A program made the translations under genes and the position numbers. A stretch of 64,000 bases of DNA, taken from Octopus sinensis (taxonomy: Eukaryota). Within the stretch, counting starts at the first letter, position 1. Every line of letters begins with the position of its first letter. The notes below the pieces were generated by a model that was not told the DNA's origin, did no database searches, and saw only the letters and a list, made by a program, of their open reading frames with translations. The stretch covers positions 110,360,001 through 110,424,000 of the forward strand of contig NC_042998.1 of NCBI RefSeq assembly GCF_006345805.1, in the 5' to 3' direction. Shown here piece after piece: positions 3,651-63,779 of this stretch.

Positions 3651-6345
3651 GATCTTTGGCAGAGTATCGTAGAGAATGTTTTACCGTATATGCGACGGTT
3701 TTATACTTTAAAAGCAAAGTACAATGAAGTTAATATTATTAGATACTTTTCTGGATCATTAACGGAACTACATCCCTTAAAATGGTCAGTTTTGTTATTC
3801 CGTTATTTTATTCTTGCTCCCCTTCTACCATTTTCGTTTTCTCTATCTTACAGTAGAAGAAATTGTCTATGATAGGACTTTAGAATAGATGTCTCCATCA
3901 AGAATAAAAAATGCCTGTAGCAGACCATGTGCTACGTAGATTCCATTGTAACACTCACACACGCACGCGCGCGCACACGAAGCACAAACACACACACATG
4001 TATATGTTCACAGACATATACATATACATATATAAGCGATTCTTTGAGAAGGAATTCTACATCTCTAATATGTGTGTGTGTGTGTGTGTGTGTCTGTGTG
4101 TGCAGAACACCATTGTAATTTAATGATGCTTAAACTCAAGTTGCAATACCAAACCTTAATCATTTAAGTCCTCCTGTGGGACTTGAAATTTTAGAGAATT
4201 ATTGTTGTTACAGTAGCAACCAATAAATTGTTGTAGTGAACCAACACAATAACATTCCAGTATCATAGTTGTTGTCTCTTTCGCTTATCGAAATGATCCG
4301 AGTGGATGTGTGTTCGCTCATTCCTTTGTGAAGATAACCAGATTATCCGGTCTCAAGCGTATAGAAAGTTTCACCAAAATAAACAAAGTAGAACTAAGAA
4401 CCCTAATAGATTGAACGTGATATCTTAGGTGTCCAGTCCAGAAAGAAACTTGATATTAAGTCACACATGTTCACATATATACATACAAACCAACACACAT
4501 ACACACATATATGCATACAAGCATATACATAGATACATATGAGTGTACGTGTGCGTGTGCGTGTATGTGTATGTGTGTGTGCCAATGGATGTTAGAATGT
4601 GAGGTTGAAAGCTGGATGCGTATACTTGTACGTCAATTGTGCTTTTTATAAATCCAACAATATAGTGATGAATCGATAATATCTGATGGCTAAGCTGAAC
4701 TATAGCCACAAACATTACTGAACTCACAAATCTTCTTTCATAGTTATATACGTCAGCGATTTATTTTTGTATATCTAAATACGCATATATTCGTATATAT
4801 GTATATATTTGTGTATTAATGGAAGTGTGTATATAGTAATGTAATTGTGTGTATGTATATGCGTGTGTGCAAATGTGTTTCAGTGTGCGTTTCACTGTTT
4901 TCATTTGCATATCGACCACCTAATCCATTTATCCAAACACGCTTGGATATATTCATATTTATTAAGTTGACTATGTATCCGCCTGTATGCCTTTGTGCAT
5001 TTGTGCGTGTGGAGTACTTTCTAAGTTGCGTTGTTTATATATCTATTTGTTTCAATATGCATATATGTATACTCTCTCTCTGTCTCTTCCCCTCACACAC
5101 ACATACACACGCATACACACACACATAGACAACCAATCCAAAGACAAAGACAACCCATACAGACAACCAATCCAAAGGATACGTGTGTATTATGTTGTTT
5201 AGTTTATGATCTCTTCTAACATCGTTTCTTAAAATATTCCAGTAACCATGCAGCGACTTGCAGAGATAGTTTTGATTATTCTTAAATGAATAGAATGGGC
5301 GGCTCTTGTAGATTTCACCAATCGGAGGTGAGACTAAATTAGATTGGATATGCTGTGTGGTGACGTTGATATTAACGATTGCCAAAATGGCTACGTTATG
5401 AAGGCCAAAGGTCGAATAAAACAAACAGTGAGAATGTGTAATATCCAAGTCAAAATTGTTGGACATCACTCTCCGTGTGAAATACTGTGATGATTAATAC
5501 TAGTCAAGTGTGCAAAGCGTTGTTATTCTCTAAATATCAGTTGTAACGCGTAATAAAAGAATATACTTAGTGTTTTTTTTTAAATTTTATTTTGGAAGGT
5601 CTCCATAGGGAATAAAAATTGCTGACGTGTTTTTATTTCAGATACAAAAGGGTATAAAAAATTCTGAATTACTTTGTGTTTGGGAAAAGGAAATTCAGTT
5701 TAAGAGACGTCATATGAGTATATGTAGAAAAATAAGAAGAAATTTCATTTATAGTCAGGCCTTTTGTGTAGAAAAATGGTTTCGGTGTGTTTAAAGTAGG
5801 GTTCCAATTAGTACAAAATTGATTTCCAAAAGTCAGTGCAATTGATCATTGATTTCCATTCTTTTTATTGAGTTCACACATTCTAGCGAACGAGTTGTGT
5901 AAAAAAGAGAGTATAAGACATGGTTCAATAAAGAAATAGAGGTATTAATGATAATTATAATTGCGCAGATGCTGTGTACAATGTTCCGCATCAGTATAAG
6001 ATTTCATGAAACACTTATTAATTATACTCCACTTATTTTGAACGGAACAAATTTCAAAATAGTTTACACATGAATCACATAGCCGCTGATATTGACGTTG
6101 GTATACATACTTACATAGATGCATACACAAAGCACACACACGCACACACGCACACATACACATATGTCTATATATATATATATAATAAATAAATATATAC
6201 ATATCTAGAAATATATATACATATATATGCATTTATACACACATATATATGTGTACCTATATACACATATTCATAGATATATGCATACATCTTTCACATA
6301 TATATATATATATAGATATACACACACATCCCTCATACACACACA

Positions 6346-18699: not shown

Positions 18700-20000
18700 A
18701 AATAAGACAACAATACCAAGGCTGTGTTGAACTTGTAGGACATTTATGAATAGAAAGGTAGTCTTACAGCTGTTTCTGGGATATTAGGGATATCTCTTCA
18801 TCAGAGACGACACGAGAGCGTTCGATATAAGGAGAAATAAAGAGAAATAAGTATAAAAAGAAATAAGAGAATAAAAATAAAAGTAGGACGCTACAGTTGT
18901 AGTTCTATTACCCAAGAAAGTGCTGTGTAGACGGGTAGAAATGCTTCTTATGGTATGTAGATGCCGATAGGAGTTCATAGTTTGTTATTACGAGTGGATA
19001 GTGTGGAGATATAAATCCCATGTGCTGTTCAATCAAAGAGGTGTTGTGGTGTGAATGAAATTTTGAGATTGTACTGGTAGGGGTAAAAAGATAAAGAGAA
19101 GAGAACAGATATGTATGTTAGGGGAGAATGGTATTAGTGAAAAGGAATAGGTGAGGAAAGAAGAAAGAAGAAGAAAAATGAAAAAGTGTGTTAGATGGTG
19201 GTCAAGACATTGTGAGGGGGTTGCCAAACGAGAGCTATCAGGATAAAAGGAATAGGGGAGGGATAGAAGGAAGAGATAAGAATGTAAGGAAGAAATATAT
19301 GTGAGAAATGAGAGGTGGTGTGATGTGTTTGAAAGGCACTAAGGTGGAGAGATAGGCAAAGAAATGGAACGGGGGTGTACTAAAGTGAGTAGTAAACCTC
19401 AAAAAAGAAGACAAGAATTATAAGAAATATTGGTCAAGTTTCTAAAAATAGACGTGGGTCTTTATTGTGCTACCTAAAGTAATAGTGGGGTCTGGTGAAT
19501 CATAGAGAGAAAGAAAGATGTATATATAGAGCTACACACGCGCGCACACATATACATTTTAAGTATATATATTCACTATTATAAGACTGCATGCTTATAG
19601 ATGTATTATTAAACAATTACAAAATTAAAATTAAAAATTGAAAAGTTATTACCTAAGGGTTGTTCGGTGTATGTACTGTGCGGTGAACAAGGTTGCATTT
19701 AGGTTTGTGGTAAAATTTGAAGGTATGAAAAAAGCTGTTTTTGCATGTACCCAGGGCCTCATTATACTTATTTAGTAGTATTGAATCGTTGTATTTTAAT
19801 ATGTGGAATGCCTCTTTTAAGCACAACTTATAGGCTGAGAGTTGACCTTGGTATGAAAGTCTTGAATCTGTTATGGACCATGACAAGTTATATGGAATAT
19901 TCCTATTTTTGAGATGATGAATGTGACTGACGAGGGTTGTGGATTTACTCTGTTTCTCATATCTAAGAGAACTGAGACGCGTAGCGTACTGCTGTTTAAA
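18700..20000 (-). mobile_element. Penelope-like element 3' part: GIY-YIG C-terminus (19720-20000), pyrimidine-rich UTR, terminal HHR
   Basis: Minus strand FKQQYATRLSSLRYEKQSKSTTLVSHIHHLKNRNIPYNLSWSI..LCLKEAFHILKY..LLNKYNEALGTC; co-oriented HHR at 18761-18808. Confidence 0.75.
18761..18808 (-). ncRNA. Minimal type-I hammerhead ribozyme
   Basis: Minus strand: GUCU CUGAUGA agagauaucccuaauauccca GAAA CAGCUG UA AGAC. Helix I GUCU/AGAC, intact core boxes, helix II gauau/auauc, palindromic helix III. Confidence 0.8.
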
Positions 20001-20014
20001 ATTTAAACATTGAT

Positions 20015-20058
<44 letters not shown>

Positions 20059-20330
20059 ATAAGTAATCTTGTGTATGAAAATATGCATATATGTATGCGT
20101 ACGTGTATGTATACATATATAGAAAAATAGATAGGTGTACGTGTGTATATATAAATATGTCTATATGAATGTGTGTATTATGCAACAAAAGCAGTTATAG
20201 AACTAGATACTAACAGATTTAGATTCAGGAATTTAGGAAATTTCAGTTAGATTATTTATTTTTTCTTAAGCTTACCCTTAAAAAATGTTTGTTTTTTTTA
20301 AGCGTTAGCAATTATAAAGTGTTTCAAGTT

Positions 20331-27714: not shown

Positions 27715-28925
27715 AGTTAGCCGATATGGAAGGTAATTTGCTCTCTATTGTTGGAGGTGGATTAACACATCCAGTTTGCAGCTGCTGCGAAAAAGGTGGT
27801 CAAGCGAAAAGGGGCCAGGGGATCAGATTAGGAGTTATGTCCCTTGGTTGGGTGCGCTGTAAGCCCGGTAAGAGTTAGCTTGAAGTCTTTGTGGGAAAAG
27901 TGTGCGTTATTAAGTGTGGTGCTTCTGTGGGGATGGAGTGTGAGATATGTGTAATGGTGTCATAGGCATTATTTTTCCAAGGATATAGGTATATATAGTT
28001 GTGTTCGTTCATCTGTTTTCTTTCTGTATTGGTTAAAGTTTGTGGGGATTTTATCTTAGCATGCGGTGTGCAATGTGTATGTATATGGGGAGGTCTAAAT
28101 ATACGTGGGTGTACAATTTGTTTGAAGTGGTATATGATGGGGGGAGCGGTCTATTTTGTTGGGTGTCCGCCTTGTTGGAGTGTGCGTGTTTGTATACGGG
28201 AGCATTGGTTTGTGCTCTGGTCAAACTCTCCCGAGCTCGGGGTCATTGTTAGAAAGTCGAATTCGGGACCGGTGGTTGCAGTCATGGTGGGGTGCGCAGG
28301 TATGATAGGATGTACTTCCTTTCAGGTGGGCAAGCATAAAACACCTCACTCCTGCTTTTCAGGTAAATATCTAGGCGTTGGGGACCTTTAAAATTGCTCT
28401 TCTCAGCCAGGTACGTCCTTCACTTCCTGCGACTATTGAAGTACGCTTTGCATTTCTCCAGGATCTTGCACATTATGGTGTTCTCTGTGAGGTTTTCTTT
28501 CAAAGACCAAACGTGCTTGGTCAGGGTTGTGGCATTACGTTTATCCGAGACCTTGAAGGAGGACGTGTGGTTCTTAAAGCGGGTCCTGAAAGGGCCTTCC
28601 ATTCCTTCCACATACTTCCACTTGCTCGATTGCGCATTATGTCCTTTGGCTGTTAGCTCTGCTTCGTATAGAACTGTCTCTGTGTTACAGTGGCCGTTCA
28701 TCGGACAGGTGGTGTTACACCTGAATGAGCACCCTACCTCTGCCTCACGTGTAGGCCTACCTACTAAAATTTCTTTTACACTAGGTGCACAAATAAAGAA
28801 TATTCTCAGGGTATGTCTATTAAGTATTTTGCTGAATCCACTAGTACGGGAGAAGTGTTTATCATCTAAGCTAAGAAAGATATTATCTACTGTGGTCTTA
28901 ACATTTAAAGAGAAGGGTAGGGTGT
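27715..28925 (-). mobile_element. Penelope-like element 3' part (RT-linker + GIY-YIG + UTR)
   Basis: Minus strand SLNVKTTVDNIFLSLDDKHFS..KILNRHTLRI and CPMNGHCNTETVLYEAEL..KYVEGMEGPFRTRFKNHTSSF..NATTLTKHVWSLKE..KILEKCKAY. Confidence 0.85.
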
Positions 28926-29359
28926 ATGCTTATGACTGTAAGTATACATACACACACGTGCTTGCGCATAGACATATGTCATGCCTTTCGGACCAAAGTT
29001 CATGATTGTAGGCTCAACGCATTAACAACTAAACCAAGCGTTGATATACATATTTCGGTGGGTTTTTTTTATTACTACAGTACACTAATACACACTGATG
29101 CTAAATATTTACCCAATTCACTCCAGAGACATATTGGCTAATTTTCTTTTATTAGCTGAAAGGAGATGGGTATGAATACTGAATGCGTACATCAGAACAA
29201 CTCTAAAACAGATTAATTGAAATCGTGTTAAAAAATTTACAAATAAATTGGGATATATCCAAAATATTCTATGCAGTTGAGTTTTGACTTATTAGCAAGA
29301 CATATAATTATGATGTCGCTACAACCTATATGACACTGTAATACTTAGATAGGTATCGG

Positions 29360-58075: not shown

Positions 58076-58137
58076 TCATCATCATCATAATCATCATTAT
58101 TATATGAAAACTCAGCTTCTTTTTTTTACTGGGTATG

Positions 58138-58507
58138 ATGGAAAGTGTCAGCTGTCCAAAGTCAGTAGACTAAGTTGACATTGTTTACTAGTCAAACTTC
58201 AAAAACGCTGCAAAAAGTTCATGCAGTTCCAAGCAATGGTGATTTTGGTAGGTGTTCTATCTTTACCAATCTTTTTGAGCCATGTTGGTCGTTGAGTACT
58301 GATACTTCCAAGTGCACCAATTATTATTCGTATCATGTCTACTCTTTTCATTGACTACAACGTTCGTACTGCCACTTCAAATCCTTCTGGTTGTTTAGCT
58401 TTTCGTCTTTCTCTTTGATCCTGGTGTCACTGGACATGATATGTCGATTTATTACTCACCACAAGAATGTTCGGTTTCCAATGTTTGGACAGGTGAATCA
58501 TTGCATT
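58138..58507 (-). mobile_element. R4/Dong-type LINE 3' end, older copy
   Basis: Homologous to 58637-58875 (ggaaagtgtcagctgtcca 3' end, tgatacttccaagtgcaccaatt = IGALGSI); abuts (ATT)n. Confidence 0.8.
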
Positions 58508-58535
58508 GTTACTATCGTTGTTGTTGTTGTTGTTG

Positions 58536-58629
<94 letters not shown>

Positions 58630-58636
58630 TATTATT

Positions 58637-58975
58637 ATGGAAAGTGTCAGCTGTCCACAACCAGCAAACTAACGTGACACTTGTTTACTAGTCATGTTCC
58701 AAGAACCCTGCGAAGAATTCTTGCAATTCCAAGCAATGCTGATTTTTGTAGGTGTTCTACCTTCACACTTGCATCGATCTTTTTCAGCCATGTTGGTAGT
58801 TGAGTGCTGATACTTCCAAGTGCACCAATTACTATTGGTATCACGTCTACTTTCTTCATTGACCTCAAACTTCTTGCATTTAATGTGCACTCGTTTTCTG
58901 TACCATCTGTACTCTCTGTTCCGGTGGTAATACTCCATAACCATCATGATTACTTGTTTACTCCACTTATACATT
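58637..58975 (-). mobile_element. R4/Dong-type LINE derivative: N-terminal motif joined to C-terminus
   Basis: KWSKQVIMMVMEYY..YRKRVH followed, in another frame, by KKVDVIPIVIGALGSISTQLPTWLKKI..LQKSALLGIARILRRVLG*. Confidence 0.8.
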
Positions 58976-59000
58976 ATTTGTTCTCATCTTGTGTGTTGTT

Positions 59001-59046
59001 AACACGACGTTTCGGCTGATATACCCTCCAACCTTCTTCAGGTGTC
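59001..59046 (-). ncRNA. Minimal type-I hammerhead ribozyme (best-preserved copy)
   Basis: Minus strand: GACAC CUGAAGA A GGUUG-gaggguauau-CAGCC GAAA CG UC GUGUU. All core nucleotides intact, GUC cleavage triplet, ACGU palindromic helix III. Confidence 0.88.
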
Positions 59047-59107
59047 TTGGGGAAATTTCGAACCTGGCTTCTCACTCCCAACTTATTTTTCGATGTTGTT
59101 GTTGTTG

Positions 59108-59169
<62 letters not shown>

Positions 59170-59249
59170 GCTATTATTATTGCTATTATTATTGCTATTA
59201 TTATTATTGTTTTAGTTGTTGTTGCTGCTGCTACTGTTGTTGTTGTTGT

Positions 59250-60210
59250 TGAGGGAGATATTAGCAAAGTGTTGTATTATTCTTGAATACTGTCCTGATG
59301 TCATATGGGCAGCATATCTTTCGTATCTTTTCGGAGAGGCCTTTCACACATGATATGCCGAATTGAAGTTGAGGTATCGTCCAGTAAATGTTGGCTTGCG
59401 GTATACGGATGTCCTGAATCCATACTTGGTGCGTGAATCTATACTTGGTGTTTGTATCCGTGCCCTTTATATAATTTTTGTTTGTTTGCTTGTTTACCTA
59501 TGTATCACTATTTCTTATATTCATCATAGGTATGTTTGATATTTTTGTGTATATTACACCGTTTGTATCTGTGCATTTTTTACTTCTGTCTTTAGTCGTC
59601 GTGTCGCTTGGTGTGGTGTTCCAGGATTTACTCCTGTATAGCAGGTTCATCCCATTCACATCATGCACGCTTGCTTTCGAATTATAAATCTGCGGCCACG
59701 TTTCATACCCATTCACTAGATGGTAACAAAAAATAATTGTTTTTTCACTGGTTTCAGATACTTCCAGCAGATCTGAGCAAATATAGAAATTACTTCGTAC
59801 CCTCACTGGCGATATGTGTCAGAGAGTGTTGTTGATGCTCTCTGACTGGGTAGTTTAGCTTCAATTCCGGTTCCGCCGTATTTAGATTGCTTCGTCCATC
59901 TGTACTTGTCACTGGTGTCATCGTTATGTACAAACTGTAGATTTCTGTGCATGTTAAATATCCTATCCCTTTCCTCGTCAAGAACTAAATGACAGCACGC
60001 TGGTTTTCCTTGGAACACATTATCTATCTGCAACTGAGAACAAGAAAGAAATTGCTTTAAAAGTGTTAATCTTACAACATGTGCAATCCGAGTGACTTGT
60101 GTCAGATAATATAAAAGATATACCAGCGTTTGCATTACATTCGGTAGAATCCCCGTCGAAAATTCTAAATATAAGCAATTATATGGTGAGCTTTGTGCAG
60201 GTGTCATTCA
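59250..60210 (-). mobile_element. Penelope-like fragments (RT C-terminus 59270-59435; decayed GIY-YIG 59740-60060)
   Basis: FRTSVYRKPTFTGRYLNFNS is a clear PLE RT motif; YLTCTEIYSLYI..VREHQQH is weaker. Confidence 0.65.
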
Positions 60211-62445: not shown

Positions 62446-62544
62446 CAATTGAAAATTGTCTCCCCAGACACAACAAAATATGATTCAACACACGAACTCA
62501 CATAAAGAATCTTGCAAAACAAATCCAAAAACGAAATATCTGCT

Positions 62545-63246
62545 TATGTGAGTGTTCCATTTATTTCTAATCGTGTTTCTCCTTGAAGAAGGAAGAATAC
62601 TCGTGGATTAATCCAGAAATCGGTCCGATTCGGGAATAACGAATTTTTAAAAAATGTCTGTAAGCTTGCTTTCTTTGTTTCAGCACGCTGTGTATTTATA
62701 GTGAAAAATATTATATGTGGTTAGACATTCTAAAGTCTATTTTTCAGCATACTGGCATAGAAAATCTTTTCTTTTACCCTTATTTATAATTGTTTATATT
62801 TTCACCCTGAAAGGTATTTTAATATGCTGGCCACTGATAATTTCTTTTTCTTTTGAAAAATTTTATTCTTACATTAGAAGTAAATTTATTACGATTCACT
62901 TCGGGACTGGTAACCACTTTACGTGAGTTTTCAGACTCGTGTACTGAAGCTTGCTACAGCATTTCTGTTTGTATATATATTTGGGATACTTAAATGTGCT
63001 CATGACTTTGCATCTGCTTTTTCCGTGGGTATATGTGAGTGTTCCATTTATTTCTAATCGTGTTTCTCGCTGAAGAAGGAAGAATCTACGTGGATTAATC
63101 CAGAAATCGGTCCGATTCAGGAATAACGAATTAAAAAAAATTCTGTTAGCTTGTTTTCCCCGTTTCAGCACGCTGTGTATTTATAGTGAAAAATATTGTA
63201 TGCCGTTAGATTTTCTAAAGTCTAGTTCTTTTAGCATACTGGCATA
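62545..63246 (+). repeat. ~215-bp direct repeat pair (62545-62759, 63032-63246), each carrying an HHR motif
   Basis: Highly similar copies. Copy 2: UCG CUGAAGA aggaagaaucuacguggauuaaucca GAAA UCGG UC CGA. Copy 1 has UUGAAGA. Confidence 0.9.
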
Positions 63247-63779
63247 TATATATATACACAATACAAAATGGGACAAGAACGTAAAACATCCGGACAGCTA
63301 GGTGATACAAAAAGGGACAACAAAACATCCAGATAGATGATACAAAGAAAACAAGGATGGGTCATTCGAAGTTTTCTTTCCTCAGTCAAGCACCAGATTA
63401 TCCTCGCAATTTCGGCTAATTATTCTTGAGATTGCTCCAATCTGGCCAGCCCCAAGGAAAAACTAAGCTAAGAGCATTAGATTCCTTGGAAGAAAGCAGC
63501 GAATGTATACAAAAACATGGACGGAAAAAACGGACAATGTTACACAAATATAGATACAATAAAAAATCCAATAAAAATAATAACAGGACATAACAACAGG
63601 TGTCTTTCGACTAAGGACGAATTGAATTAAGCTGGCGCGTGTGGAAATGAAGTCTTACGGCAAAGATAGAAACATTTCACAACACACAAGGAAGAATATC
63701 GATGAAAGCGGGTGGAGCCGCTCTATGTCCTGATTAATGATACATCTAATGATGGTGTCACAACAAAATCACTGGTAAT

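Follow-up and report, generated by a model that had tools for sequence, protein, structure and literature searches.

A stretch of 702 nt in Octopus sinensis DNA, inside the window (the 64,000 nt analysed from contig NC_042998.1), carries two hammerhead motifs in direct repeats that flank a non-coding stretch. What kind of element does it represent? With fair confidence, the locus is read here as a decayed copy, 1.44 turns long, of a dispersed non-coding family of ~490 nt with predicted hammerheads, likely inserted by the RT-EN of a Hydra-clade Penelope-like element (PLE) and probably copied from a ribozyme-made RNA circle.

Overall architecture of the locus

The layout of the insertion is given in Table 1. 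A sequence-only reading had described two LTR-like direct repeats of ~215 bp with a spacing of 487 nt, both containing a hammerhead (C3U in the first). The repeats, their spacing, and the two cores are present, along with a GAAA in each, and the repeats are 88.5% identical at an offset of 487 (BLAST E = 2.7e-75). The LTR framing, on the other hand, was abandoned: only the window copy has these repeat borders, and other copies start anywhere on the monomer and mostly end elsewhere. The two "LTRs" are a mere overlap of 1.44 turns. No target-site duplication was seen at the 3′ TA-tract junction.

Table 1. Features of the insertion in the window, with monomer positions numbered from the predicted cut.
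Feature	Position	Strand	Remark
Whole insertion, 702 nt, 1.44 monomer turns	62545..63246	+	Monomer positions 402–487, 1–487 and 1–129
First pass of overlap region ("LTR 1")	62545..62759	+	Randomly truncated at its 5′ border
Type I hammerhead, copy 1, whole motif	62571..62642	+	
Distal stem, copy 1	62571–62574/62639–62642	+	
Helix I, copy 1	62577–62582/62631–62636	+	First pair C·C
Core, copy 1	62583–62589	+	TTGAAGA, C3U
Helix II, copy 1		+	Two-part; GAAA at 62616
Helix III, copy 1	62619–62629	+	Cut expected after 62630 (AUU)
Predicted cut-to-cut monomer, 487 nt	62631..63117	+	Non-coding
Single-pass monomer part ("spacer")	62760..63031	+	
The family's two main 3′-end sites, in single-pass part	near 62775–62806 and 62870–62901	+	
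Second pass of overlap region ("LTR 2")	63032..63246	+	Stops at +129, a minor 3′-end site
Type I hammerhead, copy 2, whole motif	63058..63129	+	Predicted cut after 63117
Core, copy 2	63070–63076	+	CTGAAGA, intact; GAAA 63103–63106
(TA)n tract	63244..63256	+	3′ junction, likely target

The window copy is probably unable to release a monomer. It is likely dead because of the C3U change and mismatches in helix I, whose second pair in copy 2 is C·A; the earlier suspicion that the locus may be inactive is therefore likely right. Very abundant unrelated repeats lie on either side of the insertion (62466–62539 and 63244–63650), and the host genome (G000, 2.72 Gb) is rich in microsatellites.

A dispersed non-coding family

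Repeat and spacer were searched separately. The repeat gave 48 matches (40 scored of 504 candidates) and the spacer 45 (40 scored of 1607), i.e., the unit is multi-copy and not a single-copy duplication. Across loci, the two are direct neighbours, with either one first. A degenerate pattern of 26 nt, searched exactly, matched 81 times versus 0 with its reversed control; a looser pattern matched 415 times versus 5, a count in which overlapping variants are double-counted and other families included.

The family is a dispersed, non-coding, closed monomer whose subfamilies are 464–501 nt long and 72–80% alike. Natural cut-to-cut monomers measure 487 and 478 nt in subfamily A, 501 in B, 479 in D, and 464–468 in G; identity to A is 77–80% for B and D and 72% for G. 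Subfamilies A, B, and D differ from the commonest letter of each column by a median of ~10%, the top matches of the younger subfamily G by 4%. At ~10%, the window's subfamily is old, and the window's own copy is an old, probably inactive member. The longest stop-free stretch is 57–84 aa in sense and at most 103 aa in antisense, and none is common to the subfamilies. Compared with the PLE proteins tried, the unit had no similarity (best E 0.49), nor was it found attached to an ORF. The sequence-only proposal, a non-coding unit of retrozyme type whose monomer measures 487 nt, is supported. Family pieces also occur in contigs of three presumed-RNA runs and of an unlabelled one, where the abundant flanking repeats have much greater depth; such contigs cannot show ends or circles and were left out of the evidence. 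At one locus (L121, 3156 and 3461), two subfamily-D hammerheads lie only 305 nt apart, which suggests a shorter, internally deleted monomer.

Hammerhead register and fold

The first reading had placed the cuts after 62625 and 63112, in a GUC register, with a minimal hammerhead and a helix I of only 3 bp. The family fits a different register, 5 nt downstream, which leaves the monomer length unaffected: a 6-bp helix I with a 4-bp distal stem, a palindromic 4–5-bp helix III, and a predicted cut after AUU/AUA. The cuts in Table 1 are therefore predicted from the covariation, pairing, and energy of this AUU/AUA (AUH) register.

The motifs aligned for this purpose numbered 39 (35 taken from a set of 70 distinct intact motifs, two of them replaced by the pair in the window, and four added D/G copies). 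The AUU/AUA register pairs 88.8% of the cells, compared with 73.6% for the GUC register, whose helix I reaches 64.1% and has two of its three pairs broken (in 18 and 16 of the 39 motifs). Double-sided changes occur in 16 of 24 pairs, including four of the six core pairs of helix I and three of the five of helix III. The covariation score of 0.370, which is inflated by relatedness among the motifs, was reached by 0 of 500 shuffles, and controls with a slid register gave at most 0.161. Predicted energy was lower for the AUH register in 37 of 39 copies. Averaged over 106 motifs, helix I forms 5.2–5.5 of 6 pairs, versus 1.6–3.8 in the GUC register. None of the 39 aligned motifs has a gap at the predicted cut.

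Position 17 divides the subfamilies: the predicted cut follows AUU in A/C (35 of 37 copies) and AUA in B (55 of 57) and D/G (12 of 12). An A·A mismatch at 10.1/11.1 is present in 36 of 37 copies of A/C. Both this mismatch and a U at position 17 are expected to slow cleavage.

Two tandem hammerheads had been suggested as a source of a dimer partner in cis. Such pairing is possible (predicted palindrome duplex energy −13.9) but not clearly needed, because an intact copy (L005) can fold its hammerhead as a monomer at a predicted −20.2 kcal/mol, versus −21.7 for the MFE. The circular fold is predicted to be stable in all four natural monomers (z −3.2 to −5.4, 30 shuffles each); that of the window is put at −113.8 kcal/mol (z −4.2). 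A perfect palindrome of 10–12 nt lies in helix II (window 62605–62615 and 63092–63102), where alternative pairing or a second dimer contact is possible. An Rfam scan of the window gave no hammerhead among the 150 of 177 matches listed, and its miRNA matches were discarded as microsatellite-driven.

Insertion anatomy

Copy ends were mapped in 168 non-overlapping loci, 146 of which held segments; after two duplicates were dropped, 240 segments from 145 loci remained. Since the counting intervals were picked after seeing the data and the loci were chosen by similarity, the end counts are not a random sample. The 3′ ends concentrate at two sites ~90 nt apart, with 101 at +145–176 and 66 at +240–271 from the cut, together 167 of 240 (13% expected). 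The 5′ ends are spread round the whole monomer, with 2 of 240 within 4 nt of the cut (3.9 expected). A microsatellite directly follows 109 of the 167 main-site 3′ ends, as against 18 of the 240 5′ ends. The sequence is TA-rich at 96 of the 167 main-site ends and at nearly all ends in subfamily G.

The predicted cut is crossed once by 159 of the 240 segments and twice by 14. Forty segments are longer than one unit, and the longest copy anywhere spans 2.8 units. A head-to-head inverted piece is present in 72 of the 145 loci. The G set comprises 29 loci that were top matches to a long query and is thus biased to long copies; in it, two sites with a spacing of 90 nt hold the 3′ ends of 44 of 49 segments, and the lengths include 1101 and 1287 nt for two copies. 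Neither the 145 loci nor these 29 contain an array of three or more full units. No pile-up of ends at the predicted cut was seen among the 240 segments. One of them (L038, 1420–1894, − strand) runs from +1 to +483, nearly from cut to cut, like a linear cleaved monomer.

Amplification at the DNA level, as a local duplication or satellite, was also considered. A paralogue of the window locus exists (L032, G000:C2:194.93 Mb), with flanks 98–99% identical and repeats 97% identical, and these shared flanks indicate that the locus was copied once by segmental duplication. For the family as a whole, however, this explanation is very improbable: it is refuted by 145 dispersed loci that have polar ends, microsatellite 3′ junctions, and inversions, and no long arrays were seen.

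Relationship to known retrozymes

The family resembles the metazoan non-LTR retrozymes in the available passages of PMC7229834 (Cervera and de la Pena 2020) and of a 2026 preprint by Li et al. (bioRxiv 10.64898/2026.07.22.740005): non-coding, AT-rich head-to-tail units with one type I hammerhead each, a self-paired predicted circle, and co-occurrence with PLEs. The likeness is drawn here from genomic sequence, and the circular RNA is a prediction. Yet, several differences are present in the same passages. The monomer of 464–501 nt exceeds the 150–450 bp of PMC7229834, although it lies within the 51–972 bp of the preprint. Moreover, the family consists of dispersed insertions of 0.1–2.8 turns, with no long arrays seen and a Hydra-type hammerhead, and neither defined internal 3′ ends nor inversions are described for retrozymes in these passages. 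Plant LTR retrozymes (PMC4918200), with their features as given in the two sources above, also have two hammerhead-bearing direct repeats around a non-coding stretch, a likeness found at the window locus only. Their hammerheads are type III and their LTRs fixed, whereas the family is type I with variable borders, and their 4-bp target-site duplication is absent at the window locus.

As for novelty, the first reading knew of no description of this family. The class is described in the sources above; the family itself was not found among the listed literature on retrozymes or hammerheads in octopus, cephalopods, or molluscs, and Repbase, Dfam, subscription journals, and supplements could have a description. 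Judged by sequence, the family appears to be a previously undescribed addition to the non-LTR retrozymes, with unusually clear Hydra-PLE fingerprints. The preprint argues from Xenopus pLTR homology that non-LTR retrozymes derive from PLEs; Hydra was found only in coral among its 35 species, and cleavage was obtained for only 1 of 9 predicted retrozymes.

Hydra-clade PLEs as the likely driver

In the portions of PMC8557442 (Craig et al. 2021) available, Hydra hammerheads have a helix III of 3–4 bp, a loop of 1–3 nt, and often one extra base on each side of helix II; by our own count, 22 of 26 rows of its File S2 have U or A at the cut. The family likewise shows a 4-bp helix III, a 1–2-nt loop, U/A at the cut, and extra bases flanking helix II. 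Since File S2 lists the same build, the odd hammerhead features are a signature of the Hydra clade and not a novelty. The insertion anatomy matches as well. The same source describes PLEs as forming partial tandems, tails, and inverted 5′ pieces and as targeting (TA)n, which is where almost all Hydra families insert; the family has (TA)n insertions, partial tandems, tails, and inverted 5′-truncated pieces. (TA)n insertion is not diagnostic by itself because it is common to Naiads. The tail of ~90 nt compares with 30–40 bp drawn there for PLEs generally. Two internal RT starts are a PLE trait seen in vitro for a Poseidon PLE, according to the part of PMC11167929 available.

Distinctively, the family has no RT-EN ORF, its helix II is in two parts, and no sequence-level parent was present among the loci examined. 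It is not an autonomous Hydra element, because the ORF for RT with a C-terminal GIY-YIG is absent. By analogy with these elements, mobilisation by a Hydra-clade PLE enzyme is likely; the link rests on motif style and insertion anatomy, since no ORF-bearing relative of the unit was found.

Candidate enzymes exist in the same genome, where some elements of Hydra type combine long open frames (RWK, DKT, CxCX5C) with the pattern seen in the family: two ends, (TA)n, and the odd palindrome. One of them (L111, G000:C5:61733000-61741000) has a 717-aa frame with RWK, DKT, and CxCX5C, 97–100% identity to the best of at least 150 matches, a similar hammerhead, two 3′ ends, and (TA)n junctions. Its hammerheads lie at 4849 and 2271 (− strand) in what is a young Hydra-type PLE family; in its pLTR hammerhead, the core change U4-to-C is fixed, and the core can pair with helix II. 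Further Hydra-type families have open frames of up to about 950 aa (L252–L264), and the hammerheads of L254 and L263 combine a very long helix II region with a 6-bp helix I. A Pfam search gave no family for the Hydra proteins.

Could the copies instead be truncated pLTR or UTR ends of an autonomous PLE with an overlooked ORF? Their anatomy matches PLE ends, and PLE sampling covered only a few families, all of the Hydra clade. Nevertheless, copies pass from the tail region straight to the next hammerhead without an ORF, as in the 14 segments that cross two cuts. A Hydra protein match lies near 7 of 146 family loci, and none is contiguous with the 5′ end of a copy. At L169, such a match is upstream on the same strand and separated from the copy by an inverted piece. 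The search for an autonomous parent with EN and RT queries, which covered few of many Hydra families, found no similarity to the unit in 47 loci examined: none in L091–L117, and a best E of 0.009 over 23–43 nt in L252–L271. For the closed unit, this explanation is largely refuted and is given a small probability, while an ORF-bearing parent may be its ancestor. L140 was considered as an ORF-linked copy and rejected; that copy stops at (TA)n, ahead of an ORF that is old and decayed.

Circular or linear template

That the family is PLE-mobilised and non-autonomous, by whatever template, is regarded as very probable, and among such readings the circle receives a larger share than the line. Circular PLE templates have been proposed (PMC4209133, in part). 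In the available passages of PMC7229834, PMC4209133, and the 2026 preprint, animal retrozyme movement and the use of circular templates by PLEs are proposed and not shown.

If the template is a circle, a locus with two hammerheads would be transcribed, and the transcript would be cut twice after AUU/AUA. By analogy with part of PMC7229834, the released monomer would be ligated by an RtcB-like activity. A Hydra enzyme would nick (TA)n DNA, reverse transcription would begin at one of the two internal sites ~90 nt apart and run round the template until drop-off, and a second cDNA would give the inverted piece. Rolling-circle copying would thus start at two fixed internal sites and seamlessly cross the ligated cut up to three times, repeating the private variants of the circle.

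The neighbouring turns of long copies bear on this point. Among 28 cases in subfamily G, the similarity of the two turns exceeds both medians for comparison with other loci in 24 and does not exceed a median in 4; in 8 of the 28, they share more rare alleles than any other copy does. The turns of the window locus have four rare alleles in common, a number that 0 and 2 of the 61 other copies match. Many pairs of turns from the older subfamilies resemble each other no more than they resemble other copies (L046, 0.76; L059, 0.76; L193; L208). Gene conversion could also make neighbouring turns alike.

The main alternative dispenses with the circle: a PLE-dependent, non-autonomous family would have as its templates linear read-through transcripts of partial tandems that were never cut, or would spread by template jumps. 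A Poseidon PLE used mainly uncut RNA in vitro (PMC11167929, in part), so that a linear template would account just as well for the lack of ends at the cut. In some pairs, moreover, the two turns differ as much as unrelated copies do. The absence of arrays of three or more full units from the 145 and 29 loci argues against this alternative. Moreover, linear copying could not extend a copy beyond the length of its source, whereas five subfamilies have persisted, and the ribozyme fold was kept by compensatory changes over 20–28% divergence. A linear template is thus judged unlikely, with an appreciable share of the probability. The circular template is probably favoured by copies of up to 2.8 turns, the ungapped cut, the lack of long arrays among the loci seen, selection on the predicted ribozyme fold, the stability of the predicted circular folds, and like turns. 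The strongest formulation, that the family is a ribozyme-made circular RNA parasite of Hydra PLEs whose insertions would be a fossil record of rolling-circle reverse transcription, is put forward tentatively, at somewhat under an even chance.

The family is useful because it makes the model of PLE mobilisation testable. It shows PLE integration marks at nucleotide resolution, with candidate Hydra enzymes that have long frames in the same genome, and it names RT start sites, a target, and an enzyme class for a direct circle-versus-line assay. If true, the rolling-circle reading would link an animal retrozyme with one particular PLE clade, and the PLE-circle hypothesis would gain a minimal substrate on which it can be tested.

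Other hammerheads and PLE remnants

At least five more hammerhead families have the same helix II ends (L128–L138, L143–L149, L156, L157, L159, L160). They show no similarity to the unit, and no Hydra ORF is linked to them; they may be further non-autonomous families. Elsewhere in the window, the region 58134–59700 contains a minimal PLE-type hammerhead (59041, − strand) that lies within a local duplication of ~500 nt, downstream of a decayed RT-like frame. GIY-YIG-like fragments were judged by eye at 324–752 and 19653–20177 (− strand), and one at 28420–28929 (− strand) matches Hydra-type endonucleases.
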